This document shows, piece by piece, positions 12,601 to 43,101 of a stretch of 64,000 bases of DNA (its first letter is position 1; each line of letters starts with the position of its first letter). The stretch spans positions 32,127 through 96,126 of the forward strand of contig JBBDJV010000015.1 of NCBI GenBank assembly GCA_040879725.1, read 5' to 3'. Source of the stretch: Minisyncoccota bacterium. Its GTDB lineage: Bacteria; Patescibacteriota; Minisyncoccia; Phycocordibacterales; GCA-2401445. The position numbers were made by a program, and so were the translations under genes. The notes under the pieces were generated by a model, which was given only the letters and a program-made list of their open reading frames with translations, did no database searches and was not told the DNA's origin.

Positions 12601-15600
12601 CTACTACAGTAACCGGTGGAAGTTTGCAGATTATCGGAACATCAGATGCTACGACGACTATAGATAGGCAGAGTACGGGGAATTACGGTATTGAGATAGA
12701 AGGTGGTACGTTCACGGCTTCTTACTATAGTTTTGAAAATATGGGTTCTCGCGGACTTGGGTTTAGCGGAACACCGACAGTAACAAATATTTCAGATGGA
12801 GATTTTGAGTTGGGACTCGAAGGACAGACGCTCATAACGGTAGACGCAAGTGTTATTGATGCAAATCCAACTAAAACATTCAGTAGAAATCGTTTTGCTA
12901 CAGCAGGTTCTGTTACGAGTGGAATAAACGTTACTGTGGAGGGAACGTCCGTAAGTTCGTGGAGGTTTAGTGACCACTATGGTGATTTGGACGGTGAAGC
13001 AAATGACAGCGATCCAGGCGGTGATCCAGGATATGTTATTTGGGATGATAGCGCGGGAGATATTACTGTATCTGGTGTTGTGTATCAGAACGATAGAGTT
13101 ACTCCTGCTGGTGGAGCAGTGTGTGATGGAACAACGAATGTCGTTCGGCTTTTGGTGGAGGGAGCGGGTAGCTACTTCGTGCCGTGTGCTTCAGGAACAG
13201 GAGTATACACAATACCAAGTGTAACTTTCTTACCGAGCGATGTCTTCACGGTATTTCTTGATAATGCATCCGAAGATGCTGTAGCGGTAACGTACGGAGC
13301 ACTTACCAGTATTGCAAATATGCACCTTTATACAGATCACGTAATAGTGCGTCACGAAGGAGTAGACCCGATTACCATAAGTGAACTTGCGGTATATGAT
13401 GGAGGTGATGATGCGGATATTCCGTATACAACAACCCTAACTCCCGACACACTTTCTACTGGAGCGGGTACCGCTCTCTATGTATGGCAAGGAAAAACAT
13501 TTACTCCGGGAGGAGATGTGACGGTTACGGGAAATGGTACAACCAATGAGTATGACGGTACGCTGTATGTGTGGCAGAATGCAAATTTTGTTGCCGAAGG
13601 CAGTGAGTATTTCACTATCGGAGGAAGCTTGATTGCGAGCTCGAGCGCGGTTATTACCAGTGCTAGTTCAGATTTTGACTTTACTTCAACCGCTACCGGA
13701 AAAGTGGTACGCACAAACAGCTCGCCACTAGCTTCAGTTACATTCTCAGGTAGTGGAGGCGCGTGGTCCTTCCCCGAAACAACCGTTTCAGTGGAAGATG
13801 ATTTTACCATTACTGCTGGATCGGTAAGTCTTCCTGTGGGCACAACGACAGTTGCCGGATCATTTATAAATAATGGAGGAACCTTCACGCATAATAGTGG
13901 AACAGTGCAGTTAAATGGAACAGAAGTTGGTAATTCAATTCAAGTTGGTGGATCAGACTTCTATAACCTAACAATCGGAGGTACGGGTTCTTGGACATTC
14001 CTTGATACCAATGCAACCACAACAAATCAACTTCGCTTTGAGTATGGCTCAACAACGCTTCCGTCAGGGGTACTTACTGTGGGCGCTACACTTACTTCTG
14101 TAAATGGAACCTTTAATCACAACAACGGAGATGTGAAATTTATTTCTACCAGTTCAGGTAATGTTATTACCCAAAAAGGCTCAGGATTTGGCGGAATAAC
14201 TTTCGATGGTACTGGAGGATCTTGGTCATTTGCACAAAGTGTCGCTACTACTACCAAGGACTTCGCTATTGTAAACGGTTCGGTTGCATTACCGACAGAC
14301 ACGCTTCGGGTCGGAGGTTCGTTTATTAACGAAGGTTCATTCAGTCACAGTACCGGTACGGTGTTAATGAATTCCGCACTTACGGGAGAGGTAATAACTC
14401 CGGGAAGTGATCCATTCCATAACCTAACAATACAAAACAGCGCAGGGGGATGGACGCTTACCGGTTCAGCTACCACAACAAATAACTTTAACCTTTCTAC
14501 CAGCACAAGCTTTACTCTTGTTCCGGGTTCAACCTTGAATGTCGGGGGTTCATTTACAAATACCTCGGGCGGTGCGGGAACTTCGTGGGACGGAACGACG
14601 ATAAACCTTACTGGAGGCAATAGTTATTCAATAAATGGACGATTAAGCTCCGGAGATGAATACAATACTCTGGTAGTATCTACAACAACAAAAGCTCGCC
14701 TCTGGTCCTCATCCGCAGGAACCACCACTGTCGCAAGTACCGCATCACTCTACTCACAAGACCACGCAGGAGTAGACGGTGACCTCTACATCTGGGGAGA
14801 CTATCGCCGAACTACCGGTAATGACTACTGGAGCTATGCTACTGACTTTGACGGAACCGCACTTACCGGAGGAAGTGAACGACAAGTAAACGTACGCTTT
14901 GCTCCAAATGCTTCTACTACAGTAACCGGTGGAAGTTTGCAGATTATCGGAGCATCAGATGCTACGACGACTATAGATAGGCAGAGTACGGGCACGTATG
15001 GTCTTTCTGTGCTCGGAGGAACAGTAAATGTAGATAGATATCAGATAAGAAATATTGATGAATTGGGATTGTATATTTCTGGACAACCTACCGTTACCAG
15101 TCTTTCAAATGGAGATTATGAGCTCGATAAAGAGGGTGGTTCAATGATTACTGTTTCTTCCACAACGATTGATTTCAACCCATCGCTCTTTATTGGTGGT
15201 GCAAAATTTGCAACATCTACTGGAATAACAAGTGGATTCAACGTGACGTTGCTGGGAACACCAATAAATGCGTGGACTTTTACTGGGCATAGCGGAAATT
15301 ACGATGGAGAAGCATATGACAGTGATGGTGGAGATGCATGTGGAAAAATACGATGGAGTGACAGTGTGTGTCTCTTTGTAAGTCAAGAAAGCTATAGATT
15401 TAGAAATGATGACGGAGGGGAAGGGGTCCCTAATGACGAGTGGTACCATTCAGATTGGGATAAACGTATGAGAATTGCGATTACAAACGCTTCCACTTCA
15501 GCGCTCACAAATCAACAAGTAAAAATTGAGTTACCAAAGGCCACTGATATGCAAAGTGATTACGGAGACCTTCGGTTTACCGACAACTCAGGAACAACGA

Positions 15601-17660
15601 CAATTGATTATTGGATTGAAAGTTACACAACAGCAACTTCAACTGTGTGGGTAAAAGTTCCAAATCTCCCAGCAGAAGAAACCACTGGTATATACGTGTA
15701 CTATGACACTGTAGCAACACTCGATACTGATGGGGTAGCCACATCAACATTGATCGTATACGACGGTTTTGAGGATAACAATATAAGTGAGTATTCAGGG
15801 GACACTAGTATGTTTTCTGTATCGACAGGTTTTGATTTTGAGGGAACCTATGGACTTACATCTTCTTCAGGAAATGAAGACCAAAGAACAACAGATGGTA
15901 TTTACCGCACAGGTACAGGAAGTACCGTTTCGCAAGGAGAAACGATACATTTTGCACAATATATTGATACCTCGCTCGGTTTTCAGGATGAACCGTGTAT
16001 GGTGTTTGGTGTGCAAACACCGGGGTCAAATAATGAAAACTATGCAGTGTGTTTGGATGTATTTGGAGATTCTGTTGTTATTTCAAAAGATGTTTCTTCA
16101 AATGATGGTTCAGGAACAATACTGGCAAGCGATACTTCGGTAGGATTTTCAAGTGGGTGGTATGAAGTTGAGATTGACTGGCTCACAAGCGGAGTAATTA
16201 ATGTTGCTGTATACGATGATTCCGGTGCGCTCTTTTCTGAAGTAAGTACCACGGATTCAAGTTATAGTTCCGGAGGGTATGGATTTGGTTTTTGGATTCA
16301 GTACGGAGGATGGGATTATGTAAGTTCTTGGAAATATACTGAAGTTGTGCCGACGTATACGATTGGTATTGAACAAGTGGGTGAAGGTGCAACGTGGAGT
16401 AGTGCCGAAAACAGCCCTCTTGCGGGGCAGTCAGTAGGTGAAGATATGCGACTTCGATTCCTTGTTCAAAACTCAGGTCCGGAAATTACTGATCAAAACT
16501 TTAGATTACAAGTTGCATCAAAGGAGGGGTATGGTAGCTGTTCGTCTGTACCATACGGAAGCTTCAGTGATGTTCCTGTAAGTGGAAGTTGTGGATCCTC
16601 AGTTGCGTGTATGTCTACATCAAGTCAGGTGGTTAATAGTGCTTTAACCACACAACTGCTCTCTGTTCCTGATAGCGTGACTTTTACGCAAGGTCGTTTT
16701 GTTGAAAGTCCTTCAAACCAAACGTCAAACATTGATATCGGAACTAATCTCTATACTGAAGTTGAATATATATTTGATCTGACAAATTACGCCGTAGATT
16801 CCGCATACTGTTTGAGAACGACAGATTCTGGAACACCACTTGATAACTACGCGAATATTGCAGAGGTAAGTTTGATCCATGCCCCGACAATCACAAACTT
16901 TAACCTAAATGATAATCAGAATATTGAACTCTCAGTTGGGGCATCTACAACCATTTATGCGACAGGAACAGTAATTGACCTAAACGGATATGAAGATTTA
17001 GTGTACGCAACATCAAGTATTTATCGAACCGGTGTGGGGGCAACGTGTACTCCTGATGACAATTCATGTTATCAGGTTGCAAGTACGTCTTGTTCATTTG
17101 TAAATTGTTCTGGAAACAGCTGTGACGTGATATGTAGCGCTGACATTGCTTTCTTTGCGGATCCAACCGATGGTGGAGTGTTTGAGGCGGAAGAGTGGGA
17201 AGCTGAAATAACGGTGGTGGACCAAGGTGAGATTAGAGATACTGGTATTACCATGGGTGTTGAAATGGGAACACTTCGAGCACTTACTGTCGAAAATGAA
17301 ATTGATTACGGAACACTCGAAGTGGCAAGTAACACAGGAGATGCCAATGCAACAAGTACGGTAATTAATAAAGGAAATGACACTATTGATGTAAATCTGT
17401 ATGGTACTGACTTGGTGGGAGGTGCTAGTACGATTTCGGTAAATAATCAAAAGTTTGCAACGTCAACATTCTCATATAGTGCTTGTACTATTTGTCCATT
17501 TCTTGATAGTTCTCCTGTTCCTGCAGGTATTGATTTGAGTAAACCGACAACTACGGTGCCCGTAATGACTGAAATTTACTGGGGGTTGAATGTACCAATA
17601 GGTACCGCGGGTGTACCTCACTTTGGACAAACGACATTTGAAGCTACAGGAAGTGAGTAG
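696..17660 (+). CDS. giant (5,654 aa) multidomain secreted/surface protein, likely an adhesin
   Basis: A single uninterrupted ORF, starting at GTG 696 or ATG 711. It has an N-terminal hydrophobic anchor/signal, an acidic S/T-rich linker, an Ig-like module, three tail-collar repeats, FN3-like 'YWWRVRA' modules, a 'WNGSSWS' repeat run, very long Gly/Ser/Thr/Asn beta-helix-like repeats, DUF2341-like and LamG-like modules, and a C-terminal domain shared with the 22397..24229 protein. Confidence 0.85.
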   Translation: MDVFEMRLINLLKKDIWVVGSLLLIVLVVSGNTYLKNVYADPVIEDSVYLLPTKVESVGWNNVSTVGVQEISSDGTLGAFNKSNSAFVIFKNGEYAKEEAVIPVRETGVPKAEKIDVGETKETEGQEKLDNEESIQDFIATTTATTTTDKSVSTSTPVAESLEPENEELEGEGEEEQSTTTDSVENHNVSEEVSEEVDSEETSTSSEEVNLDTQQEINEEENNSAVEEESTDSVENENNASSSAPVTRFLNAIKRAVFSLVPSFVFADEVSTTTETSTPKVSSTTVPVEEVSSTTSVTTTPQIVTSEEEKQATEKEIEEKQVAVPSKPSEDEVIDTEAPTLTVLGNNPAVLAIGSTYNDLGVTVSDNINNNLGFKTSVDGVEVSVVSLDTKSEGVYEITYSVVDQAGNTGTAKRMVYVGIEPEEKIVSEAENETILDTFTCDNSEACTTNVLEVSGFGVGGEVFGEGLIDTAQLRISMGSNIAHSKTNELPLKLEIEYFYNESWFSAGSIVLDEEVSNAINGGYFLYALPFFESWAEFADFKVRIRYDHNKELEGGVYIDSIWIEAFSGEGINKEEFGLTKEEKKRAEIEKGMKKPKLHSVIKGKPAFEIDENPEFEFEYELQRSNISRFFRGLFKDDPDYRVSSVEIKTASGQDIDLPISLRYGGGERWGFSVEKNNESLHPGKYEVSITIHEGSKSFTDSFEFYWGVLTVNTNKSIYSPQETALFSMAALTDNGHTMCDAILRLVVVDPDQSETVVPVEKSGLCDGNNVIDVPDYFGEMQLAGVGEYQVSLERYNEEGGLVIQTNDIFEVRDYVPFDVEREGPTRIYPPAPYVMSISFRANEAFDGVITETVPKGFIIEESEGANVVVKEDVVEISWPVSVRAGERILKTYRFDAPDISPYIYETGPLVFKKEIATTSFQEMSTSSPLCSEGFCEEEITEEVVFQEIRTWKIASDAVGRMLILWDGGAAPAGWECVSCTGGDPFYQRFIRGGATYGGTGGSATHTHTASVSVGGPSATTGQTPGGSTVSGSGHTHTFTPTVSSASNLPEYRQLRVLRSTSAGTPATLPAGAIVFFTDTVPTEWTRYSAQDGRFVRGESGVGTTGGANTHSHTITGTTGAASGDTYGTQNGQTRADVAQVNHTHSVSGSTDSVSNTPPYIETILGKIDADGSLPIGMLAMWDEDVPVGWNHKSESGDPFFERFILPSATYGTIGGNITHSHANQNIVSGGPAQTTTARAGGNVSSSDHTHTISLTSYSSPSHLPPYINVVIAEFLGTDPVFTQAQFRWYTNANVETPTDAWPQGSTLNLNENEPITATSTPVSPDDVVRLRMAVGVGNATSTAGSVNFKLQYGQGSVCSAVTTWSDVGEISSSTPWIGYDNTSVLDGVELSSTTLSLSNVFGSYEEENNSTTTPNDISVGEYVEYDWVIQHNNATSGVPYCFRMVEGDGTQFFTYTSYPKLQTNSAPNTPTLDRLFDNEKIASTSPHFWFDAEDDEGDALYYQIQVDEDFAFGSVLIDNNSQSHGDQFTNLINPSQKEPYTEGNTVQFIPSSSLSNNTTYWWRVRAWDPNGSEDYGEWSEPQSFTTDSNIVESTWFQTTDEQFDTNTLNGVRTLGTDAVELNVGSSTGSMYSTFIDFSDGTYGNIWEEFSFNDAETTGSISYQVEYQTDEGAELVPDSILPGNSTGFGTSPVNLSGVDPEVYDNLRLVANFTNSGGSPQLLDWTLKWGTKIDTPTLLLPFANERFPTTTPTFTFTTTDQQSDDLQYEVSWSTVYDFTSSTTRNSSLHAGFANTEDSGDSDPFTSGDTIRFTIQPADALTASTTYWWRVRAKDPSGGNAFSDWSEPRSFTHNYLDVVSTWFQTTDEQFNTNILSGTRSTGSDSLTVATTSNEAMIVYGEGAVTTPQFRIWNGSSWSSESSALSVDSQINWVAVKEAPTREEYVLGTLGLDSDVNVQVYSEGIWDNLLEVTASISNADKRGFDITYESISGDAMVVSCDGDSNPTYYTWNGSSWSSPGTITTSTGSSCEWIRLASNPVSDEIIMVTLPGGGGQYEAQVWNGSAWGNAVVWGGMSEAHEGIGVAYQPNGALAVVTVNNDGSTPPNRMSSRTWNGSFWSGTTDTNVGYFEQGTLVADDGTNNMNLCFVNDATTVQGLPWTGTAWGTQTQLDATAHAKNDRPVDCVYETTSGRDGNVLTAYSDTTSARYSVLSGGTWSAEASISTISRSATVQLERVGDGLILGTFFDHVNERYDFSYWNGSAWSTAQTLENTPSVSSAPFKEPFMMAARGPATSGTVAVSPGIVFSDGTGPYWGELSFSNTTPGASGVLYQVQYATATTYELIPDVDLTGNSTGFTTSPVDLTGLDITTYDTIRVRATLTCDGSDCPTLDDWTVTWAEGATVSGTIAEHDETTAVTEGTVAVAVNGVLQTGKTGEIQGDGTWSITNVTAFVDDIITVFVSGATSENKAVAVTKYDGVGDITGIELHERHLTFGSDDTSPVITNSDLGLFDIAVGGSDVFFDVDASNNLVATSTGGGFDDVVVYVTSGTTYRPDSTSSGNVSTHDIAILGTIMADGNTISLSGSWRNSSTFSEGTSHVVFTALSGSESIDSTGASASNFYRVTFGQTSGTATWLLSTPLVVTNNTAVNYGTLSPGSQTLSLGGNLAIGSSGLFTKGTATTTFNGTGSSVWSDASSLKQDMGIVVIDGTSKTVTLGSNVQATDIVIGANDTFDITTGNYSIGVNGSWTNNNTFLSRQGEVNFTGSSFGVSILPGSSSFYNLSFGGSGSWTFGSTNITVVNDFSISNGFVTLPSGTTTISGSFLATASGSFAGNTGTVLFTGSSGSESISQNNSSFYNLVLNGSGSWSFSEQNATTTNNVQILSGTLTAPSGALAIGGSFTNAGTFTHNSGALRFYSSGDSKVVQPGLSSINDIIFDGSGGWVLSPSANITVSGDVSIISGTATSTAETLSVGGSWLVGPSGIFNHYDGTIAFNSSDTGETIASGNSPFGTVSFNNSNGGWAVTENATSSSGWNITDVSEFTVESGVVVAVGGDFSNDVGGAETTWTGSTLVLNSNTPFSINDKSTGSDEYASIVLNSGTKVSMWNSSATAVSANSDSYLYSQDHAGVDGNLYIWGEYVRSSGVEHWSHATDFDGTSLSGSERAVSVLFDSGASAEINNSTLSIVGGVGATTTINNQGSGAYSLSVVNSTTTAQYYAFRNLDSSGFVLTGETSVTSLSNGDFELSADGGSLVTLSAETIDENPTLQISRVRFATSTGITSGFNVTATGTPTSYWWYRNHYGNYAGEAFDNDPGDNPGNIRWDDSNLSITVSGIVYYSDRATTMGSPVCDGSTNTVRVDVQGGTGGSAPCNATTGEFSIEGVSLSGDGIVTTYLDTNGGSRAVAISKTPTADITNLGLYESWLTIRNEDVNSVSISDLVAFDSSGDSDVFFSANEGSPDTLVLEDGFGLYVEEGKSFSPNGNITLVSGSTDFVAGTFELGTSSLLTFNDGEDHAVGGSFIVGTNATATVASSSLTFTATTSGKTITPNGSSLYDVAFTGVGGEWELSTSSITGDFVVTAGTVVGTSDVLVTSGSITGNGVLAFTDGAVTLQKAGNFGGSENWTFANLVFGDGTTNATTTKIGANNILVENQLTIDTNHVLLAGDDEWELGGSGTPFVISGDFDAETSTVTYSGTSATTVTAEEYNALTLAPSGAGSPNYTLASGSFILNTLVVGDGVNTVSVNANTTDPLVNVNGDVTINSNATYVSSNSSLLSVGGSWTNNGAFTHSNGTVLFNSSDTGEIVSSGNSAFGNLLFSNVSGGWAISGNATTSGNLILASSTSFTLSPGSTLSVGGMFENQLDGGVTTWDGTTLVLEGAVGYSVNSATSTGDTYNTLVIDENTDVRLWSSSAGTTTVASTASLYSQDHAGVDGDLYIWGDYRRTTGNDYWSYATDFDGTALTGGSERQVNVRFAPNASTTVTGGSLQIIGTSDATTTIDRQSTGNYGIEIEGGTFTASYYSFENMGSRGLGFSGTPTVTNISDGDFELGLEGQTLITVDASVIDANPTKTFSRNRFATAGSVTSGINVTVEGTSVSSWRFSDHYGDLDGEANDSDPGGDPGYVIWDDSAGDITVSGVVYQNDRVTPAGGAVCDGTTNVVRLLVEGAGSYFVPCASGTGVYTIPSVTFLPSDVFTVFLDNASEDAVAVTYGALTSIANMHLYTDHVIVRHEGVDPITISELAVYDGGDDADIPYTTTLTPDTLSTGAGTALYVWQGKTFTPGGDVTVTGNGTTNEYDGTLYVWQNANFVAEGSEYFTIGGSLIASSSAVITSASSDFDFTSTATGKVVRTNSSPLASVTFSGSGGAWSFPETTVSVEDDFTITAGSVSLPVGTTTVAGSFINNGGTFTHNSGTVQLNGTEVGNSIQVGGSDFYNLTIGGTGSWTFLDTNATTTNQLRFEYGSTTLPSGVLTVGATLTSVNGTFNHNNGDVKFISTSSGNVITQKGSGFGGITFDGTGGSWSFAQSVATTTKDFAIVNGSVALPTDTLRVGGSFINEGSFSHSTGTVLMNSALTGEVITPGSDPFHNLTIQNSAGGWTLTGSATTTNNFNLSTSTSFTLVPGSTLNVGGSFTNTSGGAGTSWDGTTINLTGGNSYSINGRLSSGDEYNTLVVSTTTKARLWSSSAGTTTVASTASLYSQDHAGVDGDLYIWGDYRRTTGNDYWSYATDFDGTALTGGSERQVNVRFAPNASTTVTGGSLQIIGASDATTTIDRQSTGTYGLSVLGGTVNVDRYQIRNIDELGLYISGQPTVTSLSNGDYELDKEGGSMITVSSTTIDFNPSLFIGGAKFATSTGITSGFNVTLLGTPINAWTFTGHSGNYDGEAYDSDGGDACGKIRWSDSVCLFVSQESYRFRNDDGGEGVPNDEWYHSDWDKRMRIAITNASTSALTNQQVKIELPKATDMQSDYGDLRFTDNSGTTTIDYWIESYTTATSTVWVKVPNLPAEETTGIYVYYDTVATLDTDGVATSTLIVYDGFEDNNISEYSGDTSMFSVSTGFDFEGTYGLTSSSGNEDQRTTDGIYRTGTGSTVSQGETIHFAQYIDTSLGFQDEPCMVFGVQTPGSNNENYAVCLDVFGDSVVISKDVSSNDGSGTILASDTSVGFSSGWYEVEIDWLTSGVINVAVYDDSGALFSEVSTTDSSYSSGGYGFGFWIQYGGWDYVSSWKYTEVVPTYTIGIEQVGEGATWSSAENSPLAGQSVGEDMRLRFLVQNSGPEITDQNFRLQVASKEGYGSCSSVPYGSFSDVPVSGSCGSSVACMSTSSQVVNSALTTQLLSVPDSVTFTQGRFVESPSNQTSNIDIGTNLYTEVEYIFDLTNYAVDSAYCLRTTDSGTPLDNYANIAEVSLIHAPTITNFNLNDNQNIELSVGASTTIYATGTVIDLNGYEDLVYATSSIYRTGVGATCTPDDNSCYQVASTSCSFVNCSGNSCDVICSADIAFFADPTDGGVFEAEEWEAEITVVDQGEIRDTGITMGVEMGTLRALTVENEIDYGTLEVASNTGDANATSTVINKGNDTIDVNLYGTDLVGGASTISVNNQKFATSTFSYSACTICPFLDSSPVPAGIDLSKPTTTVPVMTEIYWGLNVPIGTAGVPHFGQTTFEATGSE
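3574..4520 (+). other. three tandem phage tail-collar (MdpB-like, Pfam Collar-type) repeats inside the giant protein
   Basis: The recurring motif chain is 'G.L..W.G..P.GW..C.G' ... 'RF.RG...G..GG...HTH(T)' ... 'LPPY/TPPYI..I'. The three instances end NLPEYRQLRVL, TPPYIETILGKI and HLPPYINVVIAEF. Confidence 0.6.
12384..12680. repeat. intragenic near-identical direct repeat, copy 1 (about 297 bp)
   Basis: The nucleotide string 'cgcctctggtcctcatccgcaggaacc...gcagattatcgga' is identical to 14697..14993 except for one mismatch. Confidence 0.9.
14697..14993. repeat. intragenic near-identical direct repeat, copy 2
   Basis: This copy lies 2,313 bp downstream of copy 1 and encodes the same ~99-aa block (RLWSSSAGTTTVASTASLYSQDHAGVDGDLYIWGDYRRTTGNDYWSYATDFDGTALTGGSERQVNVRF...). 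A diverged third copy is at ~9981..10280. Confidence 0.9.
15440..15710 (+). other. DUF2341-like module in the giant protein
   Basis: 'DWDKRMRIAITNAS...QQVKIELPKA...DYGDLRFTDNSGTTTIDYWIESY...TVWVKVPNL...GIYVYYDT' follows the DUF2341 pattern W..R..I.I......L..FP.L...F.D..G..L..E.E...........WVK.P.L....I.MYYGN. A LamG/ConA-like region follows. Confidence 0.45.
16870..17657 (+). other. C-terminal ~260-aa domain of the giant protein, homologous to the C-terminal half of the 22397..24229 protein
   Basis: Aligned blocks: YRTGVGATCTPDDNSCY ~ YRSGVTAASC..DPNNCY; FFADPTDGGVFEAEEWEAEITVVDQ ~ FLADATDAGSFYAAEDWRATVTATDD; NQKFATSTFSY ~ NQKFGTTTTGY; EIYWGLNVPIGTAG ~ DIYWGIGIPGTITFAG. Confidence 0.7.
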
Positions 17661-17803
17661 CTATAGTAGAGGAGGTATTGACGATTACAGTCAGTGGTAT
17701 ACACTAGATATATTATGAATAGAGTAGGAAACATATTCTTTTTCTTTGCCTTTAGCCAGCACTCTGGTTGAGGTTTTGCTTGTTTCTGGAAATATTCTTG
17801 AAA

Positions 17804-17836
17804 AAAGCCAGCTCTCAACCAGAGCTGGCTTTTTAG
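17804..17836 (+). terminator. rho-independent terminator after the giant gene
   Basis: A perfect 9-bp stem 'gccagctct'/'agagctggc' with loop 'caacc', followed by TTTTT. Confidence 0.7.
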
Positions 17837-18096
17837 TTCTTTACAACAAAATACAAATTATGCACGCTATGACTACGCAAAGAAAACACAAACGAACACC
17901 GGGTGCTACATTCACGCTCAAAACTGATTTTGTTATTTCCTTCCACGAAGGTCGGAAAAAAATCACACGCACGTATTCCACCGGAACAAAAGGGAAGTTG
18001 GTAGCAACATCTTTTTCCCAAGGGTCTTGGTTCTTTGTTCTCATGATGCCCGACTGAAACGTCATTAACGTCAATGAGTGTAAGCTCATATAAACC

Positions 18097-18131
18097 ACAC
18101 CCCACTTAGACACGTTCAAGTGGGGTTTTTA
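18097..18131 (+). terminator. second rho-independent terminator
   Basis: Stem 'ccccactt'/'aagtgggg' with loop 'agacacgttc', followed by TTTTT. Confidence 0.65.
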
Positions 18132-18249
18132 ATTAATGGCAAACAATACGTGGTTTTAAAATTTTCTTTATTCCTATAGAAATTTTTATCTACAACAGAG
18201 ACACAACTCTCACTACTCGCATGATATACTTTTAACGAGACTTGCCTCT

Positions 18250-19755
18250 ATGCATTTTTTACGTACCAACATTTTAGTTAAAATAACACTCTATACCTTT
18301 TTGATTGTGGGAGTAGGTGTATTTTCTTTCCATAAAGGAAGTTTGGCGCAGGTAAATAATCGTACTGCGCCTGTCATAACTGACATTTCTATCGCTGAAG
18401 TAAAAGAATCAGAGGTCCGTATTTTATGGGAAACCGATAAAGAGTCTGACTCAATGGTAAACTTCGGACTCGATAAGCGATATGGAATTATTCGTCTTCC
18501 TGGAACAAGTCGAACCGACCATGAGTTAACTATTGGAGAGTTGAAACCTTCAACCACATACCATTTTCGAGTTGTTTCTTCTGATGCATCCGGAAACCAA
18601 AGCATTTCTGGTGACTTTCAGTTTACTACGAAGGGAATAGTAGAAGTAGAAGATATTGAGCGGGTTGAATCTCGCGAACAGCGCGCGGTTGTTGAACAAG
18701 CGGTAGCGCAAATTGATGAAATTACCGATGTTGAAGCTCTTGATATTGTCATTCAAAAAATACAACAAGTTGCGTCAGGTATTACCGATGATTTAACTAT
18801 TATCGGAACACCAGATGTTGAACCTCGTACAACAACAGCAGTTGTGCGATGGGTAACAAACAGACCCTCTGATTCCACTGCATCATTTGTTTCCGAAGAT
18901 GACTACAATCCACAAAGTAGCAATCCATACACCTCTTCTCAGAGTAGCAATGATGAAAATGTTACGGACCACCAAGTTACTATTATTGGTCTTGAACCAT
19001 TTACTGTTTATCGTTTGCAAGTGTCATCACGTGATCAGTTTGGTATCGTGGGAAAAAGTAAGGAGATAACCTTTACTACAAAATCAGTATTGCCGAATAT
19101 TACCAATATTGATTTAGAGAAAATAGAAGAAACCTCAGCTACTATTGTGTGGAATACAACTGTCCCTGCTAAATCTCTTATTGATTATGAAAACTTAGAT
19201 ACTGGTGAAATTAAGTCACTCGGTAGTCCAAGTTTGGCGACAAGTCACTCGCTCCGTCTTTCAGACCTTACGCTTGGAACACAGTACCGCGCGATAATTA
19301 CCGCAGAAAATGCGGGAGGAGAAAGAGTAAGTAGTGATCCTATTACCTTCGTTACTATTATAGATGAAGAACCTCCAGTGATTTCAAAAGTAACAAACGA
19401 ATCAACGCTTTTCCCCGGTTCGGAGGCTAGAATTCAGACCATTATTAGCTGGGAAACCGATGAGCCTTCACTGTGTAATTTCTTCTATCACCAAGGGTTG
19501 GTTCCGGGAGTAGTTCCTGAACAAACATTGCCAAGAAAGGACGATAACTATAAACAGGAACATGTACAGGTTGTTGTAGACTTCGCCCCTTCAACCGTAT
19601 ACAAGTTTTGGGTAATGTGTGAGGATGCATCCGAAAATGAATCTCGTTCGGAAGACTTTGTATTGTTTACTCCCGAGAAGGAAAAAAATATTATTGATAT
19701 AATTCTTGAGAACTTCGAAGGAACGTTCGGTTGGGTTCAGGATATCGGAGCTTAA
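18250..19755 (+). CDS. membrane-anchored protein with four FN3-like repeats (likely extracytoplasmic partner of the downstream ABC transporter)
   Basis: An N-terminal TM (ITLYTFLIVGVGVFSF) is followed by four ~95-aa repeats, each ending in '...Y.FRV.S.D..GN.S.S..F.FTT'-like strands. The stop TAA overlaps the next gene's start in TAATATG. Confidence 0.7.
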   Translation: MHFLRTNILVKITLYTFLIVGVGVFSFHKGSLAQVNNRTAPVITDISIAEVKESEVRILWETDKESDSMVNFGLDKRYGIIRLPGTSRTDHELTIGELKPSTTYHFRVVSSDASGNQSISGDFQFTTKGIVEVEDIERVESREQRAVVEQAVAQIDEITDVEALDIVIQKIQQVASGITDDLTIIGTPDVEPRTTTAVVRWVTNRPSDSTASFVSEDDYNPQSSNPYTSSQSSNDENVTDHQVTIIGLEPFTVYRLQVSSRDQFGIVGKSKEITFTTKSVLPNITNIDLEKIEETSATIVWNTTVPAKSLIDYENLDTGEIKSLGSPSLATSHSLRLSDLTLGTQYRAIITAENAGGERVSSDPITFVTIIDEEPPVISKVTNESTLFPGSEARIQTIISWETDEPSLCNFFYHQGLVPGVVPEQTLPRKDDNYKQEHVQVVVDFAPSTVYKFWVMCEDASENESRSEDFVLFTPEKEKNIIDIILENFEGTFGWVQDIGA

Positions 19756-19756
19756 T

Positions 19757-21082
19757 ATGGCAAAAGCACAAATTTTCGCAAAAAACCTGGAGGTTACATA
19801 TAACGAAGGAAAGTCCAATGAATTCAAAGCATCTCGTGATTTGAACGTGGAAATTTTTGCTGGAGAATACATTATTCTTTTCGGTCCGTCTGGATGCGGA
19901 AAGTCAACACTACTCTACTCAATCCTTGGAGCACTTCCACCTTCTCGGGGCCAAATGCTCGTAAAGGGAGACGATATATATAAGTATGAACAGGATCAGT
20001 TGGTTAATTTCCAAAGAAATGTTATCGGGATTATGTATCAGGCTTTTAACCTTATTCCGTCTATCAGCGTGCTCGATAATGTAGTACTTCCGCAAATATT
20101 TGCATCAGTAGATAAAGCACGGAGAGATAACCGGGGGAGAGATTTGCTTAGGCGCTTTGGTGTGGATCATATTGCAAACAAACTTCCAACAAACCTATCA
20201 GGAGGACAGATGCAACGTGTGGCTGTAGCTCGTTCACTGGTAAATGACCCAGAGATTCTCTTAGCTGATGAGCCGGTAGGTAACTTGGACAGTATTTCCG
20301 CGGAGCAGGTTATGAACACTCTTGAGCAGATTAATTTGAATGATAAAAAAACTGTTATTTTGGTTACTCACGATGCGAAATATTTACCCTATGCGCACCG
20401 CGTGTACTATTTGCGTGATGGTAAAAATGAACGAGAGGTGCCAAATCCAGAAAAAAAGCAAATTAAAAAAGTAGAGGCTGGTAAAACTATAACCACTGAA
20501 ATTGAAAAGCTGGCTCGTATGTATCCGTATTCTTCTATTGAAGAACTTCGAGTAAAAAGCCTGGTTAATTATCTTATCGAAGATATTGACTTTGATCAGC
20601 TTGTTATTCTTGAAAAAGCGGTAGAAGATGTGATCAAGGGGAGAATGGGTGATAATCGATTTCTCGATATTTTAAATAAGCGCATAGGAGAGGGTGGGGT
20701 TGGTTTTAGTAAAGCTCGTTCAGAGATGATAACAAAAAAGATTTTCACTATAATGGAAGAGTCTCGAGATATAACCCGCTTTAGGTCAACTATTGATATG
20801 GATTTAGGTTATTACTACCAGTCAAGATTTGTTGAACGACTCAAAAAGTATACCCTCAGTGAAGTTAAAATAAAGTTAAGCAAAGAACAACATGAGCGAT
20901 TAGATGACTTTATCTCAGATAGACTTACAGGACTAACTCGTCGGCATGAATTTCTACTTGCGCTTGATAAGCCTGTGAAAGAGGGTGGTTTAGGTCTGAA
21001 CAAAAAGGCTTCTGCTCTTATTTCACGACATATTGAAAAACTACTTGCACAGGGAGTAAGCTATATAATCGCAAAACACTAA
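19757..21082 (+). CDS. ABC transporter ATP-binding protein (MacB/LolD/FtsE class) with an atypical ~200-aa C-terminal extension
   Basis: Walker A GPSGCGKST, the signature LSGGQMQRVAVAR, Walker B ILLADEP and H-loop VTHD are all present. The extension is two tandem ~90-aa repeats, each containing an 'EGG(V/L)G(F/L).K' core. I moved the start from the ORF-track ATG at 19706 to the ATG at 19757, which sits in TAATATG overlapping the upstream stop. Confidence 0.85.
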   Translation: MAKAQIFAKNLEVTYNEGKSNEFKASRDLNVEIFAGEYIILFGPSGCGKSTLLYSILGALPPSRGQMLVKGDDIYKYEQDQLVNFQRNVIGIMYQAFNLIPSISVLDNVVLPQIFASVDKARRDNRGRDLLRRFGVDHIANKLPTNLSGGQMQRVAVARSLVNDPEILLADEPVGNLDSISAEQVMNTLEQINLNDKKTVILVTHDAKYLPYAHRVYYLRDGKNEREVPNPEKKQIKKVEAGKTITTEIEKLARMYPYSSIEELRVKSLVNYLIEDIDFDQLVILEKAVEDVIKGRMGDNRFLDILNKRIGEGGVGFSKARSEMITKKIFTIMEESRDITRFRSTIDMDLGYYYQSRFVERLKKYTLSEVKIKLSKEQHERLDDFISDRLTGLTRRHEFLLALDKPVKEGGLGLNKKASALISRHIEKLLAQGVSYIIAKH

Positions 21083-21083
21083 T

Positions 21084-22292
21084 ATGCAACTCATTGACCT
21101 CGCAAAACTTTCAACTCGTATGTTTAAAACCAACCCGGCTCGTACATGGCTGACTATTTTAGGTATGGGTGTGGGTACTGGAGCGGTGGTGGTGCTGGTG
21201 GGATTGGGTTTTGGTTTGCAGGGAGTATTGCTCGAGCAGATTGTGTTCGGAGAAACACTGCTTTCGCTTAACGTTTCAAGCCCTACCTCTGATACGGTTA
21301 AGTTAAACGATGAAGCGATTGAAGAATTTTTTGCAATAGAAAATGTTCTCGATGTTTCTCCGAGAGCGAGTTTTCCCGCGTCGGTTACGTACGGTGATCT
21401 AACGGGGAATATTTTCTTAGAGGGGTTAAACCCCGCGTATGTTCGGTATACTGGTACACAAGCAGAAGCAGGAGAAGTGTTTACGGAAGAAACAAGAGCA
21501 GAAGATCAGAAAAGTGTTCTTCTCACACAGTCAGTACTAAAGCTTTTTGGTGTCGAAACACCAGAGGAAATTATCGGAGAGTCCGTAACGTTTAGAATTT
21601 TTCTTGAAACTGGCGTGGGTGAGGTTGCCAGAGAGGTTATACTTCGCGATAAATATATTGTAAAAGGAGTAACTAACGATGCAACGTCGCTTTCGGCGCA
21701 AATGCTTATGGAAGAGCTCGAACAGCATGTTGGAATTGAGCTTTATGATCGTGCCCAAGTGCGCGTTTCAAAAACTGACTTTCTCACCCCTACTACGGAC
21801 GCACTTATTGAAATGGGTTTTAATGTAACTGCGCTATCCAAGACAGTGGAACAGGCAACAAAGATTTTCCAAGGAGTGCAAGCCGTTCTCGCATCATTTG
21901 GCGGTATAGCGCTCATTGTGTCTGCAATCGGAATGTTTAACACCATGACCGTTACGCTCCTTGAGAGAACGGGAGAAATTGGAATTATGCGTACCATCGG
22001 TGCGTCGTCTCTTGATATTAAGATTTTATTCGTTTCGGAAGCGGTTATTGTAGGTTTTTTGGGAGGGCTTATGGGTATAGCCATAGGTATGGGTATTGGG
22101 ATTACGTTAAATACAGGTATAAATATTCTAGCAAGCCAGTTCGGTGGTGTTGCAGTGAAGCTTTTTCGGTTTCCGTTTTGGTTCCTCGCATTTATTTCTA
22201 CATTCTCAGGAATTGTTGGTTTTATGACGGGTATTTTCCCAGCACGGCGGGCGGCAGGACTTAATCCACTCGATGCTATTCGTTACAAGTAA
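21084..22292 (+). CDS. ABC transporter permease, FtsX/MacB type (4 TM, large extracytoplasmic domain between TM1 and TM2)
   Basis: TM1 ARTWLTILGMGVGTGAVVVLVGLGFG is followed by a ~220-aa loop and a C-terminal FtsX core 'IALIVSAIGMFNTMTVTLLERTGEIGIMRTIGAS'. It starts 1 nt after the ATPase stop. Confidence 0.85.
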   Translation: MQLIDLAKLSTRMFKTNPARTWLTILGMGVGTGAVVVLVGLGFGLQGVLLEQIVFGETLLSLNVSSPTSDTVKLNDEAIEEFFAIENVLDVSPRASFPASVTYGDLTGNIFLEGLNPAYVRYTGTQAEAGEVFTEETRAEDQKSVLLTQSVLKLFGVETPEEIIGESVTFRIFLETGVGEVAREVILRDKYIVKGVTNDATSLSAQMLMEELEQHVGIELYDRAQVRVSKTDFLTPTTDALIEMGFNVTALSKTVEQATKIFQGVQAVLASFGGIALIVSAIGMFNTMTVTLLERTGEIGIMRTIGASSLDIKILFVSEAVIVGFLGGLMGIAIGMGIGITLNTGINILASQFGGVAVKLFRFPFWFLAFISTFSGIVGFMTGIFPARRAAGLNPLDAIRYK

Positions 22293-22396: not shown

Positions 22397-24229
22397 ATGC
22401 ATATAATTAAAAGATTTAACAAAGCACAAGCTACTGCAGGAAAGGTAACTATCGTTACTGTTCTCGCGGGGATAATGGTTTTTGCCGCCTTTTATGTGCT
22501 TAACCTCGACGAACACACCGTTCCCAAGGTTGAAGCTCAAAGTAATGCAACTACTTCCGTGGAAGTCCTTAACACTCCACCTGATTGGACTGTTGATGCG
22601 GAAGAAGGTGCGGAATCATCTATCACAAATCCTACTAACTCAGGGGATGCTGTTTCGTGGGTAGCAACAGGAACCGACGCTAACGGAGAAGATTATTACC
22701 TTCTTATCTGTAATGCGTCTTCTACACCGATTGCTAATTCAAACGCTGCTCCAGAATGTACTGGTGGAACTCAGTGGGCAGTTTCAACCTCTACCGCAAG
22801 TGGTCAGCCGGCAAGTGTCTCAACTACCACAGCAGAAGCATGGGATGAGAGCAATGACTGGTATGCGTATATTTGTGATGATAATACAAGTACACCACGG
22901 TGTAATGCTGCACATCGACAAGGAAGTGGCTCGACAGCATCTCCGTTTTTAGTAAACCACAGACCAACTTTTTCACTGTTTAGCGATAGTTCACCAACTC
23001 TTCCTGGTGCTGTAATTACATGGCACTCAACATCAACTGACTCTGACATCGAGGGTGGAGCTGACACTCTTATACTTCATGTATGTAAAGAAGCAGACTT
23101 TACCGGCACAGAATGTGGTGCGGGAGGTTTCTGGGCTTCAACAACACTTACCTATACAGCAGACACTGCCGCAAGTACAACGCTTCCAGTTCCATTGCAA
23201 GACGATGATTATGAAGCATACGGGTATGTTGTTGACAACCACGGTCACGCAGCAACAGGTGGGCAGCAAGGAGCCGACTCTGTTCTAACTGTCGCAAATG
23301 CTACCCCTACGGTTAGCTCGGGTACTATCAATATTAACGGATTAGCTGACCTTGAGCTTGCGATTGCGGGAGGAGAAACTGAAAACTTCACACTTTCATT
23401 TGCTGTAAGTGATGGAAATAGCTGTGTTGCGAATGCATCTACTACGTATGAAGTGGCAACTGTTTCTGCAGACTTCTATCGCTCAGGAGTTACAGCTGCG
23501 AGCTGTAATTCTGCAGGCGATTATGATCCGAATAACTGCTATACTGGAACAGTAGCTACAACAACATGGAATTTGGTTTGTACACAAGATAATACATCAT
23601 GTGGAGGTCCTGATGACTCAACAGTTACGTGGAGCTGTACGTTCCCTCTATGGTTCCTCGCTGATGCAACTGATGCAGGAAGTTTCTATGCGGCGGAAGA
23701 TTGGAGAGCTACAGTAACTGCTACAGATGATAATTCTTCCGCAAGTACTCCAACAGAAAGTGCTGGTGGACAAGATGTCCTCCAACTTATGTCTTTCGTT
23801 CTTAATACTTCTGATATTCCATACGGAGCCCTAGAGCCAGGTCAGACAACAGAGGATTTGATCGCAACAACAACGATTGCTGCAAATGGTAATGTTGGCC
23901 TTGACCAAAACCTCTATGGAGAACATATGTGTCCAGGGTATAGTGGTCAAGGAACATGTCCATTCCAAAGTCCAGCTACCTCTTCAATCCATGCTGATAA
24001 CCAAAAATTCGGAACAACAACCACTGGATATGTAGATAATGATGCGTATGCTCTGGCTACAACAACTCAAGAGCTTGAGCTAAACCTTGCTAAAACAATA
24101 AGTACATCAACACTCTCTGAGGCAGATATTTACTGGGGTATTGGTATCCCTGGTACTATTACTTTCGCTGGTGAATATTTCGGAGAAAATACATTCCAAA
24201 TGGTTACTTCGGAATCTGCTGAGTGGTAA
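22397..24229 (+). CDS. secreted/N-terminally anchored protein whose C-terminal half is homologous to the giant protein's C-terminal domain
   Basis: N-terminal hydrophobic segment VTIVTVLAGIMVFAAFYVL. The N-terminal half contains two internal Cys-containing repeats. The C-terminal half aligns to 16870..17657. Confidence 0.75.
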   Translation: MHIIKRFNKAQATAGKVTIVTVLAGIMVFAAFYVLNLDEHTVPKVEAQSNATTSVEVLNTPPDWTVDAEEGAESSITNPTNSGDAVSWVATGTDANGEDYYLLICNASSTPIANSNAAPECTGGTQWAVSTSTASGQPASVSTTTAEAWDESNDWYAYICDDNTSTPRCNAAHRQGSGSTASPFLVNHRPTFSLFSDSSPTLPGAVITWHSTSTDSDIEGGADTLILHVCKEADFTGTECGAGGFWASTTLTYTADTAASTTLPVPLQDDDYEAYGYVVDNHGHAATGGQQGADSVLTVANATPTVSSGTININGLADLELAIAGGETENFTLSFAVSDGNSCVANASTTYEVATVSADFYRSGVTAASCNSAGDYDPNNCYTGTVATTTWNLVCTQDNTSCGGPDDSTVTWSCTFPLWFLADATDAGSFYAAEDWRATVTATDDNSSASTPTESAGGQDVLQLMSFVLNTSDIPYGALEPGQTTEDLIATTTIAANGNVGLDQNLYGEHMCPGYSGQGTCPFQSPATSSIHADNQKFGTTTTGYVDNDAYALATTTQELELNLAKTISTSTLSEADIYWGIGIPGTITFAGEYFGENTFQMVTSESAEW

Positions 24230-24269
24230 AATAGACTTTGCTCTCCACAGAATATCTCCTTATTTTTCT

Positions 24270-24297
24270 TGCGAAATCTAGCATAAGCGGTATGATA
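24270..24297 (+). promoter_or_regulatory. candidate sigma70-type promoter
   Basis: TTGCGA, a 16-nt spacer, then TATGAT. Confidence 0.35.
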
Positions 24298-24340
24298 GGT
24301 ATACACAGGCATAGTCTGGCTTGTTTGTACTTGGCCTATA

Positions 24341-25276
24341 ATGAAAATTTCTAAAAAACTGGCATATACTCTTGTTCTTGTAATTTTTCTGTGTGCACCG
24401 TTTTTCCTGCATGCGAGTTTTGGTATTACGCCACCATACGTAAAGAATACAAGCTTAACTCGTAACTCTGAGTTTACACAGAAAATTACGTTAGTGCGCG
24501 GTGATCCAGTTTCTGACCTGAAGGCGGAGCTCACTATGGATGTTCCTGGAGCAAATGACTGGATCACCATAGATAAAGGTATGACCTTTTTGTTACCTAA
24601 AGGGGAGCAGAAGGTACCTATGTATGTTACTGTAAAAATTCCCGATGGAGCTCGTTTTCAAAAATATAAAGGTAACATCCGTATACGAACATCTCCGGCA
24701 GACGGGGAGAGAAGTGGTGGTGGAGCCGTGTCCATTGCTCTCGGTGCACAAATCGATGTTGACTTTGATGTTATAGATAGAAAAATTTTTGACTTTAGAG
24801 TAAGAAAGATAGCAATTGAAGATGTTGCTGAGGGGCACTCACTCGCATGGTTATATTTTCCCGGGAAAATTAATTTCAAAATCTCACTTGAAAATACCGG
24901 TAACATAGATGTCGCACCTTCGAAAGTAGTCTTTGATATTTTTGATTTTAACGGGGAGACATTACTCGAAACTACAGAAAGTAAAAATAAAATAGAAAAG
25001 GTTAAGCCGTTTGAAACCAAAGAGGTTGTAGCAGAACTTCCTACTTCACTTCCAGCAGGAAGCTATTTGGTACGGTATGTAATTTATAACAATGATGAAG
25101 TGAAGCAAGAAGGGGAGCTCAATCTCTCAATAGTACCTTACGGCACACTCGCGCAAGCTGGATATGGTTTCAGTGGTCTGTCTATCCCGCATAAACTTAC
25201 GATTATTGTCCCTATAGCTGTTCTTCTTTTGTTTGTATTTTTGGTATTTAAAAAGTCTAGGAAAAGAAAAAGATAA
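24341..25276 (+). CDS. surface protein with a signal peptide, two beta-sandwich-like domains, and a C-terminal TM plus polybasic tail
   Basis: N-terminal signal-like LAYTLVLVIFLCAPFFLHA. The C-terminal anchor reads LTIIVPIAVLLLFVFLVF followed by KKSRKRKR. Confidence 0.6.
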   Translation: MKISKKLAYTLVLVIFLCAPFFLHASFGITPPYVKNTSLTRNSEFTQKITLVRGDPVSDLKAELTMDVPGANDWITIDKGMTFLLPKGEQKVPMYVTVKIPDGARFQKYKGNIRIRTSPADGERSGGGAVSIALGAQIDVDFDVIDRKIFDFRVRKIAIEDVAEGHSLAWLYFPGKINFKISLENTGNIDVAPSKVVFDIFDFNGETLLETTESKNKIEKVKPFETKEVVAELPTSLPAGSYLVRYVIYNNDEVKQEGELNLSIVPYGTLAQAGYGFSGLSIPHKLTIIVPIAVLLLFVFLVFKKSRKRKR

Positions 25277-25282
25277 TTAACG

Positions 25283-26416: not shown

Positions 26417-26471
26417 GTGTGCATAATCTTTTATAACGAAGCGTGTACCACATGCTATACTCAATAGTACA

Positions 26472-27536: not shown

Positions 27537-27538
27537 GT

Positions 27539-29358: not shown

Positions 29359-29928
29359 ATGGATGATGTATACGAAAAGAAAATATACGAATACTACCTG
29401 CGAGAGAAACGAATTCCCGTGTATCGTGTTATTGCAAAGCTTTGTGGTTTCGCTTCTACAAATGCCGTAAGTCGTTTAGTAACACGGTTGCTCGAGTCAC
29501 GCTTCCTTGAACGTAATTCTCGAGGAAAATTAATTCCCGGAGCGCGTATGGGAAGTGTTCGTTTGCTGGGTCTTGTTGAGGCGGGTTTTCCTTCTCATGC
29601 TGAAGAAGCTGACTTAGACACGATAACCATAGATGAATTTTTAATCGAGAATAGAGAAGCGAGTTATATGTTAAAGGTAAAGGGTGACTCTATGATCGAC
29701 GCTGGTATTTGTCCGGGTGACTTTGTTATTGTAGAGCGAAAGAATACCGCAAAAGTGGGAGATATTATCGTTGCCGAGGTGGACCAGGAATATACGATGA
29801 AATACTTGGCAGAGAAAAATGGAGTGAGATATCTCAAGCCTGCAAATAAAAAGTATCGACCTATTTTCCCTTGTGAAAGTCTAACAATAGTTGCAGTAGT
29901 TCGTTCAGTGATCAGAAAATATGCATGA
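29359..29928 (+). CDS. lexA: LexA-like repressor (wHTH plus S24 peptidase domain)
   Basis: N-terminal wHTH. The catalytic Ser is in 'KGDSMIDAGI' and the Lys in 'TMKYL', with the same spacing as LexA/UmuD. Confidence 0.8.
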   Translation: MDDVYEKKIYEYYLREKRIPVYRVIAKLCGFASTNAVSRLVTRLLESRFLERNSRGKLIPGARMGSVRLLGLVEAGFPSHAEEADLDTITIDEFLIENREASYMLKVKGDSMIDAGICPGDFVIVERKNTAKVGDIIVAEVDQEYTMKYLAEKNGVRYLKPANKKYRPIFPCESLTIVAVVRSVIRKYA

Positions 29929-43079: not shown

Positions 43080-43101
43080 GACTACATTCGGGCACTTTTT
43101 T

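Follow-up and report, generated by a model that had tools for sequence, protein, structure and literature searches.

The window, a 64,000-nt stretch of DNA from a Candidatus Paceibacterota MAG, carries three adjacent forward-strand genes, encoding a protein with four FN3-like domains (18250-19755, 501 aa), an ABC ATPase (19757-21082, 441 aa) and a MacB-type permease (21084-22292, 402 aa); the first product is the proposed extracytoplasmic partner of the other two. These coordinates and domain calls confirm those of the original prediction, with one correction at the level of the junctions. The FN3 stop codon and the ATPase start had been described as overlapping, but the junction reads TAA-T-ATG, a 1-nt spacer identical to the one correctly described between ATPase and permease. 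The ATPase starts at ATG 19757, with GGAG 6 nt upstream, and the mechanical ORF beginning at TTG 19706 is an over-extension. No clear Shine-Dalgarno sequence is seen in the letters preceding the permease ATG. Upstream of the trio, 3' of the gene for a giant surface protein, lies a terminator-like hairpin (17802-17834, forward strand) with a stem of 14 bp and a T run after it; it probably separates the giant-gene transcript from the FN3-ATPase-permease genes, and fits a separate three-gene transcription unit as predicted here. The window gave no matches in scans for Rfam families or tRNAs.

The FN3 protein matches Pfams Pur_ac_phosph_N (4e-23) and fn3 (2e-16), and the four FN3-like domains recognized originally are mutually homologous (hhalign, 79-99% probability). 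Domain 1 (residues 38-128; 18361-18633, forward strand, as are all segments here) is followed by a linker (residues 129-186; 18634-18807) and then by domains 2, 3 and 4 (residues 187-279, 280-371 and 372-476; 18808-19677). The linker, presumed to be helical, is variable and of low complexity among orthologues, and ends with a conserved GITEDLTIxGPP. The protein closes with the near-invariant tail EKEKNIIDIILENFEGTFGWVQDIGA (19678-19752), which together with the preceding FVLFTP forms the motif F-T-P..E....I..NFE..FG. The C-terminal half and the tail are the best-conserved parts of the four-FN3 protein, and the tail, which is acidic and amphipathic, is its most conserved segment. The tail motif occurs once per locus and was not found in the other cluster proteins or in the pilus-linked loci searched. 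At the other end, the protein's single hydrophobic segment leads into a small-x-A|Q site (SLA|Q in the window protein) that is conserved in the 14 orthologues inspected and typical of signal peptidase I. The N-terminus is therefore probably a cleaved Sec signal peptide (residues 1-33; 18250-18348; a rule-based call) rather than an anchor, making the originally proposed N-terminal anchoring doubtful; the conserved end of the protein is its C-terminus.

The ATPase matches Pfam ABC_tran at residues 27-174, and its NBD (residues ~1-228) has Walker A, Q-loop, LSGGQ, Walker B-Glu and H-loop all intact; G43-T51 (Walker A), S148-Q151 (LSGGQ), D171-E172 and H205 are invariant. By these motifs the ATPase is catalytically intact, and it belongs to the LolD/MacB class. 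The best NCBIfam and PDB matches of the NBD are DarD, MacB, LolD, MJ0796, Spr0694 and YtrE (PDB relatives Spr0694 at 1e-43 and YtrE at 1e-42). The ATPase had been called non-canonical, and it is so in having a family-specific cytoplasmic extension of ~210 aa at its C-terminus (residues 236-441; 20462-21079, forward strand), a region with no Pfam match. Two helical repeats in tandem (~244-345 and ~346-436) make up the extension, and both contain a GGVG motif. The extension is confidently modelled; it has no relative in the PDB and is absent from every PDB relative of the ATPase.

The permease matches Pfams MacB_PCD (7e-15, residues 21-201) and FtsX (5e-15, residues 271-395). Four TM segments are predicted, TM1 at ~23-50 and TM2-4 within ~261-385; the gap of ~210 aa between TM1 and TM2 (~51-260) holds a large extracytoplasmic MacB_PCD domain. 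Residues 10-399, the full permease length, align with MacB 261-645, and the PDB matches rank YtrF (7e-27), Spr0695 (5e-22) and MacB (1e-20) far ahead of FtsX (0.015). By these similarities the permease is MacB/YtrF-like and not an FtsX, so that grouping with ordinary FtsEX, which would have told against the original prediction, is not seen. A 4-TM FtsX domain, a large outer domain and an NBD of the LolD/MacB/FtsE class place the system among the type VII ABC transporters (MacB/FtsX superfamily). Its best NCBIfam matches are DarD, MacB and LolD, all of them far below equivalog cut-offs: MacB model NF007826 gives 94 bits for the permease and 177 for the ATPase against a cut-off of 966, LolCE gives 58 against 362, and LolD about 172 against 308. 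The BceAB type is likewise not recovered, since the permease has 4 TM segments rather than 10 and two-component genes are not adjacent within the window. The module that we define here instead combines a MacB-type permease, an ATPase bearing the helical repeats, and an upstream protein that ends in an FN3 domain and the F-T-P..E..I..NFE..FG tail.

The three genes form one unit, as originally proposed, and they are passed on together. The FN3 gene lies upstream of the ATPase in 64 of 66 species-representative loci and the permease downstream of it in 71 of 74; conversely, when metagenome loci are anchored on the FN3 tail, 56 of 60 have the ATPase after it, so the FN3-transporter linkage is kept in both directions. 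It is also seen in distant lineages and persists where all flanking genes change. Exceptions are a few loci (L017, L035, L055, L081, L156 and L176) in which the permease or the FN3 gene is missing nearby. About a quarter of the loci have unrelated inserts between the trio genes (rpsT, two-component genes or another surface gene), and strict co-translation is therefore not required. Retention of some gene order by descent in small CPR genomes could be invoked to make the FN3 gene a mere neighbour, functionally unlinked to the transporter, and an FtsE score of 170 bits in NCBIfam to make the transporter an ordinary cell-division FtsEX. We consider either very improbable. Against mere adjacency, the linkage survives the change of all flanking genes and holds in both directions. 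As for FtsEX, the FtsE score falls short of its cut-off (264.85 bits), as do those of the FtsX models (27-42 against 225-255), and the outer domain, of MacB_PCD type at ~210 aa, is about twice as large as that of FtsX. Division genes are not adjacent to the trio in the window, where the neighbours are surface proteins.

Among solved structures, the best sequence matches are Spr0693-0694-0695 of S. pneumoniae (PDB 5xu1) and YtrEF of B. subtilis (PDB 9o9x). Like the trio, these have a separate ATPase and a 4-TM permease with a MacB_PCD outer domain, and an accessory gene in the same operon. They differ from it in the accessory, here a protein of four FN3 domains whose C-terminal helix is conserved, and not an HlyD-type membrane-fusion protein; in the ATPase, which here adds the ~210-aa tandem helical-repeat domain; and in genomic context, here giant surface proteins or type IV pili. 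MacB of MacAB-TolC (E. coli and A. baumannii; PDB 5nik, 5gko, 5lil) has the same Pfam architecture, MacB_PCD plus FtsX, and the same NBD class, and presumably the same mechanotransmission; however, MacB joins NBD and permease in one chain and acts in diderms together with MacA and TolC, and the trio has neither an MFP nor an outer-membrane factor. No gene between 696 and 29272 has an HlyD/MFP Pfam match, and no peptidoglycan-hydrolase partner adjoins the transporter. The partner gene encodes FN3 domains only, lacking the coiled-coil-plus-hydrolase architecture of FtsEX activators, which upholds the view that it differs from the partners described so far.

These relatives raise the possibility that the trio is an efflux or export pump, similar to MacAB, YknXYZ or Spr0693-95. 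Its substrate, a small molecule, peptide, lipid or glycolipid, would be expelled from the outer leaflet, and the FN3 protein would stand in for the membrane-fusion protein, bridging the wall or S-layer as a conduit or spacer. Gram-positive MacAB-like operons have a layout of accessory protein, ATPase and permease, and the layout here resembles it. We nevertheless regard a pump as unlikely: besides the lack of an HlyD/MFP domain in the FN3 protein and its neighbours, and NCBIfam scores so far below the cut-offs, the lasting linkage is to surface-protein and pilus genes, not to resistance or biosynthetic genes, and in relatives the FN3 module forms the base of a protein of 2,200-3,000 aa, which is hard to fit with a conduit.

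A paralogous ATPase and permease pair lies between pilB and pilC in type IV pilus operons. These pilus-linked paralogues have no adjacent FN3-tail gene, which means that the ABC core can do without the FN3 protein. The position of the pairs, where pilins must exit the membrane, can be read as a sign of a LolCDE-like membrane extractor, which would pull hydrophobic anchors (uncleaved signal anchors of surface proteins, or pilin N-terminal helices) from the outer leaflet and hand them to the wall or a surface structure, with the FN3 protein as acceptor or chaperone. The permease does belong to the LolC/E superfamily (E 4e-10), the NBD is LolD-like, several cluster proteins have N-terminal hydrophobic segments, and extraction of a membrane-embedded moiety from the outer leaflet, as by LolCDE, offers a possible analogy for the paralogues. 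An extractor seems quite unlikely, however: LolCDE is a diderm-specific LolC/LolE heterodimer with a LolA acceptor, whereas the trio has one permease gene and lacks a LolA-like partner, the similarity to LolC/E is weaker than that to MacB and YtrF, no lipobox is seen in the neighbours' N-termini, and the FN3 tail, acidic and amphipathic, is not like a lipid ligand.

In Paceibacteria the trio sits inside a 9-gene surface-protein block of ~29 kb, ordered giant-FN3-ATPase-permease-g610-g311-g377-g354-g577; nearly all Paceibacteria loci whose flanks are long enough keep this collinear order. In the window its first gene encodes the giant surface protein, of 5,654 aa (696-17660, forward strand), with DUF2341, Ig-like domains and an N-terminal hydrophobic segment. 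DUF2341 has been noted in giant patescibacterial proteins (PMC11809585). Downstream of the trio follow five collinear surface-protein genes (22397-29272, forward strand): g610, whose C-terminal module is shared with the giant protein (E 9e-18) and was not found in the other ORFs of the window; g311, with a C-terminal TM anchor; g377, with DUF4215, Big_6 and dockerin; and g354 and g577, which are both cohesin-like and have a TM anchor at the C-terminus. More distant Patescibacteria have the trio but not the surface block; there it lies beside hrcA-grpE-dnaK or a Hint protein, and the FN3x4-plus-tail module forms the C-terminal base of proteins of 2,200-3,000 aa. The giant and FN3 proteins of Paceibacteria might be the split form of such a single protein, an idea for and against which the sequences speak equally little: the window giant has no phmmer similarity to the N-terminal parts of those proteins, where Pfam is empty. 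We found no prior description of such a module in the literature searched.

The original prediction read the trio as a dedicated export or assembly machine for these neighbouring giant, cohesin and dockerin surface proteins. The collinear 9-gene order speaks for that, as does the C-terminal module common to the giant protein and g610, which flank the trio. Against it, every neighbour protein bears its own N-terminal hydrophobic, signal-like segment, the trio exists elsewhere without these neighbours, and no type VII ABC transporter is known to form a transmembrane protein channel. Taken as a whole the reading is very doubtful, its two halves faring differently: export of the neighbours is unlikely, while a role in assembly or anchoring of surface proteins is still plausible because the block is collinear across Paceibacteria, and overlaps with the explanation that we prefer.

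That explanation, which we hold tentatively and at somewhat less than an even chance, is that the trio is a Patescibacteria-specific type VII ABC machine, with the FN3 protein as outer partner, that anchors, assembles or actuates a surface structure. The FN3 protein would be exported by Sec, lose its signal peptide, and be held at the membrane by its acidic amphipathic C-terminal helix, possibly with the linker, docking on the permease outer domain. We favor this docking site because, in all FN3-linked lineages, the outer domain is the sole extracytoplasmic component that travels with the FN3 module. The tail itself varies too little to give a covariation signal. ATP binding and hydrolysis would move the outer domain by mechanotransmission as in MacB, LolCDE and FtsEX, and the movement would pass on to the FN3 stalk, on which large surface fibres would be mounted, either directly as on a base or through it as an adaptor. 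In Paceibacteria these fibres would be formed by the separate giant DUF2341 protein and the cohesin/dockerin proteins, and elsewhere by the fused protein. The machine would thus anchor, assemble or actuate the surface structure, not pump its neighbours across the membrane. The logic is that of FtsEX with EnvC, PcsB, CwlO or RipC, where a non-transporting ABC module moves a partner bound to its outer domain, although FtsX similarity is weak and the genes here lie outside a division context.

A bolder version, which we think improbable as it stands, is that Patescibacteria have an ABC motor that holds and drives surface fibres in general, giant adhesins via the FN3 base and C-terminal helix and type IV pili via the paralogue, with an ATPase carrying a cytoplasmic domain of novel fold. 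PilGHI of Myxococcus xanthus sets a precedent, being an ABC transporter whose genes lie in the pil cluster and without which the pilus does not function, although it is of a different ABC class (ABC-2 type). If true, surface appendages would here be powered by ATP through a machine of a new class, with a bearing on how these epibionts attach to their hosts. Patescibacteria (CPR) make up a large share of bacterial diversity, and most of them are presumed to live on other cells, yet very little is known of their envelope and attachment at the molecular level. Few multi-gene units are conserved, as this module is, throughout Paceibacteria and also outside them, and the module is physically linked to their largest surface proteins and, through its paralogue, to type IV pili. 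Should the FN3 protein prove to be the outer partner of a MacB-type mechanotransducer, the partners of type VII ABC systems would extend beyond membrane-fusion proteins, LolA and hydrolase activators, and there would be a concrete target to work on in the few cultured Paceibacteria.

The cytoplasmic extension may serve regulation or docking throughout this ABC family, its pilus-linked paralogues included. A search of 1.84 billion representatives puts its domain family at 344 clusters (50% identity, E<=1e-3), and its tandem helical repeat is a well-predicted fold without a solved relative.

The three genes of the trio lie on the forward strand at 18250-22292, where ORF calling gives an FN3x4 protein gene (501 aa, 18250-19755), an ABC ATPase gene (441 aa, ATG start at 19757) and a permease gene (402 aa, 21084-22292). 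A mechanical ORF listing had offered a TTG at 19706 as the ATPase start; we rejected this codon, which lies inside the upstream gene. Both junctions read TAA-T-ATG, leaving a 1-nt spacer: the permease does start 1 nt past the ATPase stop, as the original prediction had it, and the overlap that it saw between the FN3 stop and the ATPase start was a misreading. GGAG is found 6 nt 5′ of the ATPase ATG, and reading of the junction sequence revealed no obvious Shine-Dalgarno before the permease ATG. With a 14-bp terminator-like hairpin (17802-17834) 3′ of the gene for the giant 5,654-aa DUF2341 surface protein, the window sequence is compatible with transcription of the three genes as one unit. At 590 nt, the non-coding stretch that separates the giant and FN3 genes (17661-18249) is unusually long, and besides the strong hairpin at 17802-17834 it has a second at 18099-18126; at two relatives' loci (L001 and L004) the orthologous gaps measure just 54-114 nt. 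An Rfam scan of the gap gave no match.

The FN3 gene is conserved with the transporter in relatives, as had been predicted. Among species-representative genomes, a scan anchored on the ATPase extension identified 154 relatives, of which 80 loci were kept; gene order at these was determined by ORF calling and by phmmer searches with the proteins of the window. Upstream of the ATPase, the FN3 gene is present in 64 of the 66 testable loci; downstream, the permease is present in 71 of 74. The reciprocal search of metagenome contigs, using FN3 domain 4 plus the C-terminal tail, found the ATPase next in 56/60 loci and the permease in 41/45. Fortuitous linkage is largely excluded, as is a division FtsEX (see below). 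Full-length homologues number more than 120 each for the ATPase with its extension (52-64% identity) and the FN3 protein (47-58%), in Parcubacteria-type lineages that include Giovannoni-, Azam- and Nomurabacteria and Spechtbacterales. A protein encoded in a Candidatus Paceibacterota MAG has the same sequence as the ATPase (100% identity). Unrelated insertions separate trio genes in about a quarter of the loci, so that tight coupling as in the window is common, not obligatory. Genes inserted without breaking the gene order include that of ribosomal protein S20 (rpsT), an opposite-strand histidine-kinase/response-regulator set and the gene of a 1,505-aa surface protein (L001:7418-7684; L024:7447-11695; L046:4171-8685).

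In nearly all loci with enough flank, the trio is part of a collinear, single-strand block, giant-FN3-ATPase-permease-g610-g311-g377-g354-g577, where the g genes encode surface proteins. The two proteins that flank the trio in the window, the giant (696-17660) and the 610-aa protein (22397-24229), share at their C-termini a module of ~220-260 aa with Cys residues (30% identity, E 9e-18), which was found in none of the remaining window ORFs.

The ATPase combines a nucleotide-binding domain (NBD, residues ~1-228), whose catalytic motifs are invariant, with a C-terminal extension (residues 236-441). Among PDB sequences the NBD is nearest to the LolD/MacB class (MJ0796 2e-47, Spr0694 1e-43, YtrE 1e-42, MacB ~1e-40, LolD ~1e-38, FtsE 2e-35), and it passed none of the NCBIfam equivalog cut-offs. 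No PDB sequence matches past residue 241, and a Pfam search of the extension gave no match; a weak profile match to bL20 (E 0.05) was not borne out. The extension consists of two copies, arisen by internal duplication, of a ~90-residue helical unit, and each copy has a GGVG motif (hhalign 97.5%, E 6e-12); its structure model of nine helices is confident (pLDDT 88.6, pTM 0.83). Its identity among homologues is ~40%, vs 66% for the NBD. The family is small: at E<=1e-3, a set of 1.84 billion representatives yielded 344 clusters (50% identity), and its named divergent members are "Patescibacteria group bacterium". The ATPases of some lineages have a further C-terminal region of 270-340 aa past both helical repeats (P0290, L090:8001-10328; P0282, L094:6667-8778), which in P0290 is low-complexity and Pro/Ser/Thr/Lys-rich.

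The permease has four predicted TM segments and Pfam matches to MacB_PCD (7e-15) and FtsX (5e-15), and both Pfam architecture and sequence place the core in the MacB/FtsX superfamily. Compared with solved structures, the permease matches YtrF (7e-27), Spr0695 (5e-22), MacB (1e-20) and LolC (4e-10), with FtsX reaching no better than E 0.015; judged by these matches it does not cluster with FtsEX, from which the original prediction had expected it to stand apart. The defining features of FtsEX that we tested failed here (scores, partner and context). BceAB failed on its tested feature, having 10 TM segments where this permease has 4. MacAB likewise failed, with no membrane-fusion protein here and a score under the cut-off; an efflux pump in which the FN3 protein replaces the membrane-fusion protein is, we think, unlikely. 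We found neither the FN3-tail partner nor the NBD extension in any solved relative, and neither is described in the literature searched.

The FN3 protein matches the Pfams Pur_ac_phosph_N (4e-23) and fn3 (2e-16). Residues 38-128, 187-279, 280-371 and 372-476 form homologous FN3-like domains (profile-profile comparison, 79-99% probability); a linker of ~58 residues separates domains 1 and 2, and a 25-residue tail follows domain 4. This tail, FVLFTPEKEKNIIDIILENFEGTFGWVQDIGA, is the protein's most conserved segment (mean top-residue frequency 0.84 vs 0.52-0.76 elsewhere); it is amphipathic and acidic, with hydrophobicity too low for a TM helix. The sole hydrophobic stretch is N-terminal. That this stretch anchors the protein, as first thought, is doubtful: a small-x-A|Q site of the signal peptidase I type comes after it, both in the window protein (SLA|Q) and in each of 14 orthologues that we examined.

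Divergent members, whose ATPases are 35-41% identical to that of the window, keep the trio despite wholly different surroundings: hrcA-grpE-dnaK(-dnaJ) lies 3′ at loci L090/L091 and L094, and a Hint-domain protein gene at L092. The upstream gene product at these loci and L095 is far larger, 2,200 to ~3,000 aa. At L091 and L094 the last ~480 residues of this product can be aligned from end to end with the mature FN3 protein of the window in full, from domain 1 through the linker and domains 2-4 to the tail; at L092 and L095 the alignment is piecewise, still spanning domains 2-4 and the tail. The tail motif is kept in these proteins (...FKIFTPRKEESVLELIIKNFEDAFGFLKEL; ...FTILTPKKKKGVVQIIIENFEDAFGWFKNL...). 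Since the large upstream proteins keep FN3x4 and tail C-terminally, these form a conserved C-terminal "base module", with the variable outward part N-terminal.

Two further loci, L093 (5795-18601) and L096 (6790-15005), have a paralogous pair of extension-bearing ATPase and MacB-type permease between pilB (T2SSE) and pilC (T2SSF), preceded by a response-regulator gene; at L093, prepilin-like genes and pilM/pilN lie further on. The paralogous ATPase bears an extra N-terminal region besides the helical-repeat extension, and neither locus has an FN3-tail gene. The FN3-linked L095 and pilus-linked L096 come from one sample with equal G+C (0.393), and their ABC pairs may be paralogues within one organism. 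A Lol-like extractor of hydrophobic anchors would account for the pilus-linked paralogues as well; the LolCDE features that we tested failed (single permease here; scores), and we consider such an extractor quite improbable.

The core is a type VII ABC system on the MacB/YtrF branch and has a cytoplasmic domain specific to its family. It is co-inherited with a protein whose C-terminal end consists of FN3 domains and an invariant helix, and it is linked to giant surface proteins or type IV pili. The TM and stalk regions of the permease are highly conserved (0.86-0.93), its outer domain less so (0.53-0.72). Of the extracytoplasmic components, this outer domain alone accompanies the tail throughout the FN3-linked lineages, which makes it the likeliest candidate for the tail's binding partner, and perhaps for the linker's too. 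ATP-driven movements would then pass to the FN3 stalk, on the principle of FtsEX-EnvC/PcsB or MacB-MacA, and this stalk may serve surface fibres as their base or adaptor. That the trio exports its neighbours, one of the roles originally predicted, is unlikely. First, those proteins have signal-like N-termini of their own. Second, type VII ABC transporters are not known to have a transmembrane channel. Third, the trio exists without those neighbours (L090/L091, L092, L094). Both the nine-gene block and the C-terminal module common to the giant and the 610-aa protein are compatible with the trio helping to assemble or anchor surface proteins.

One paper notes no more than the presence of DUF2341 in giant patescibacterial proteins (PMC11809585). 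Further along the window is a cohesin/dockerin set in a CPR genome (25283-29272), whose three genes are collinear across Paceibacteria: g377 encodes DUF4215, Big_6 and dockerin, while g577 (Pfam Cohesin 2e-9) and g354 (cohesin-like by eye only, with no Pfam match) each encode a C-terminal TM anchor. Directly 3′ of the surface-protein block (29359-31148, forward strand), the gene for a LexA-like S24 peptidase and that for a Y-family polymerase (IMS/IMS_C) overlap by 4 nt. At 43078-46584, on the same strand, a 1,168-aa IleRS-like class I aminoacyl-tRNA synthetase (tRNA-synt_1, Anticodon_1, DUF5915) carries an unusual insertion between its synthetase stretches, a His_Phos_1 histidine-phosphatase domain (residues 511-672, E 1e-33).
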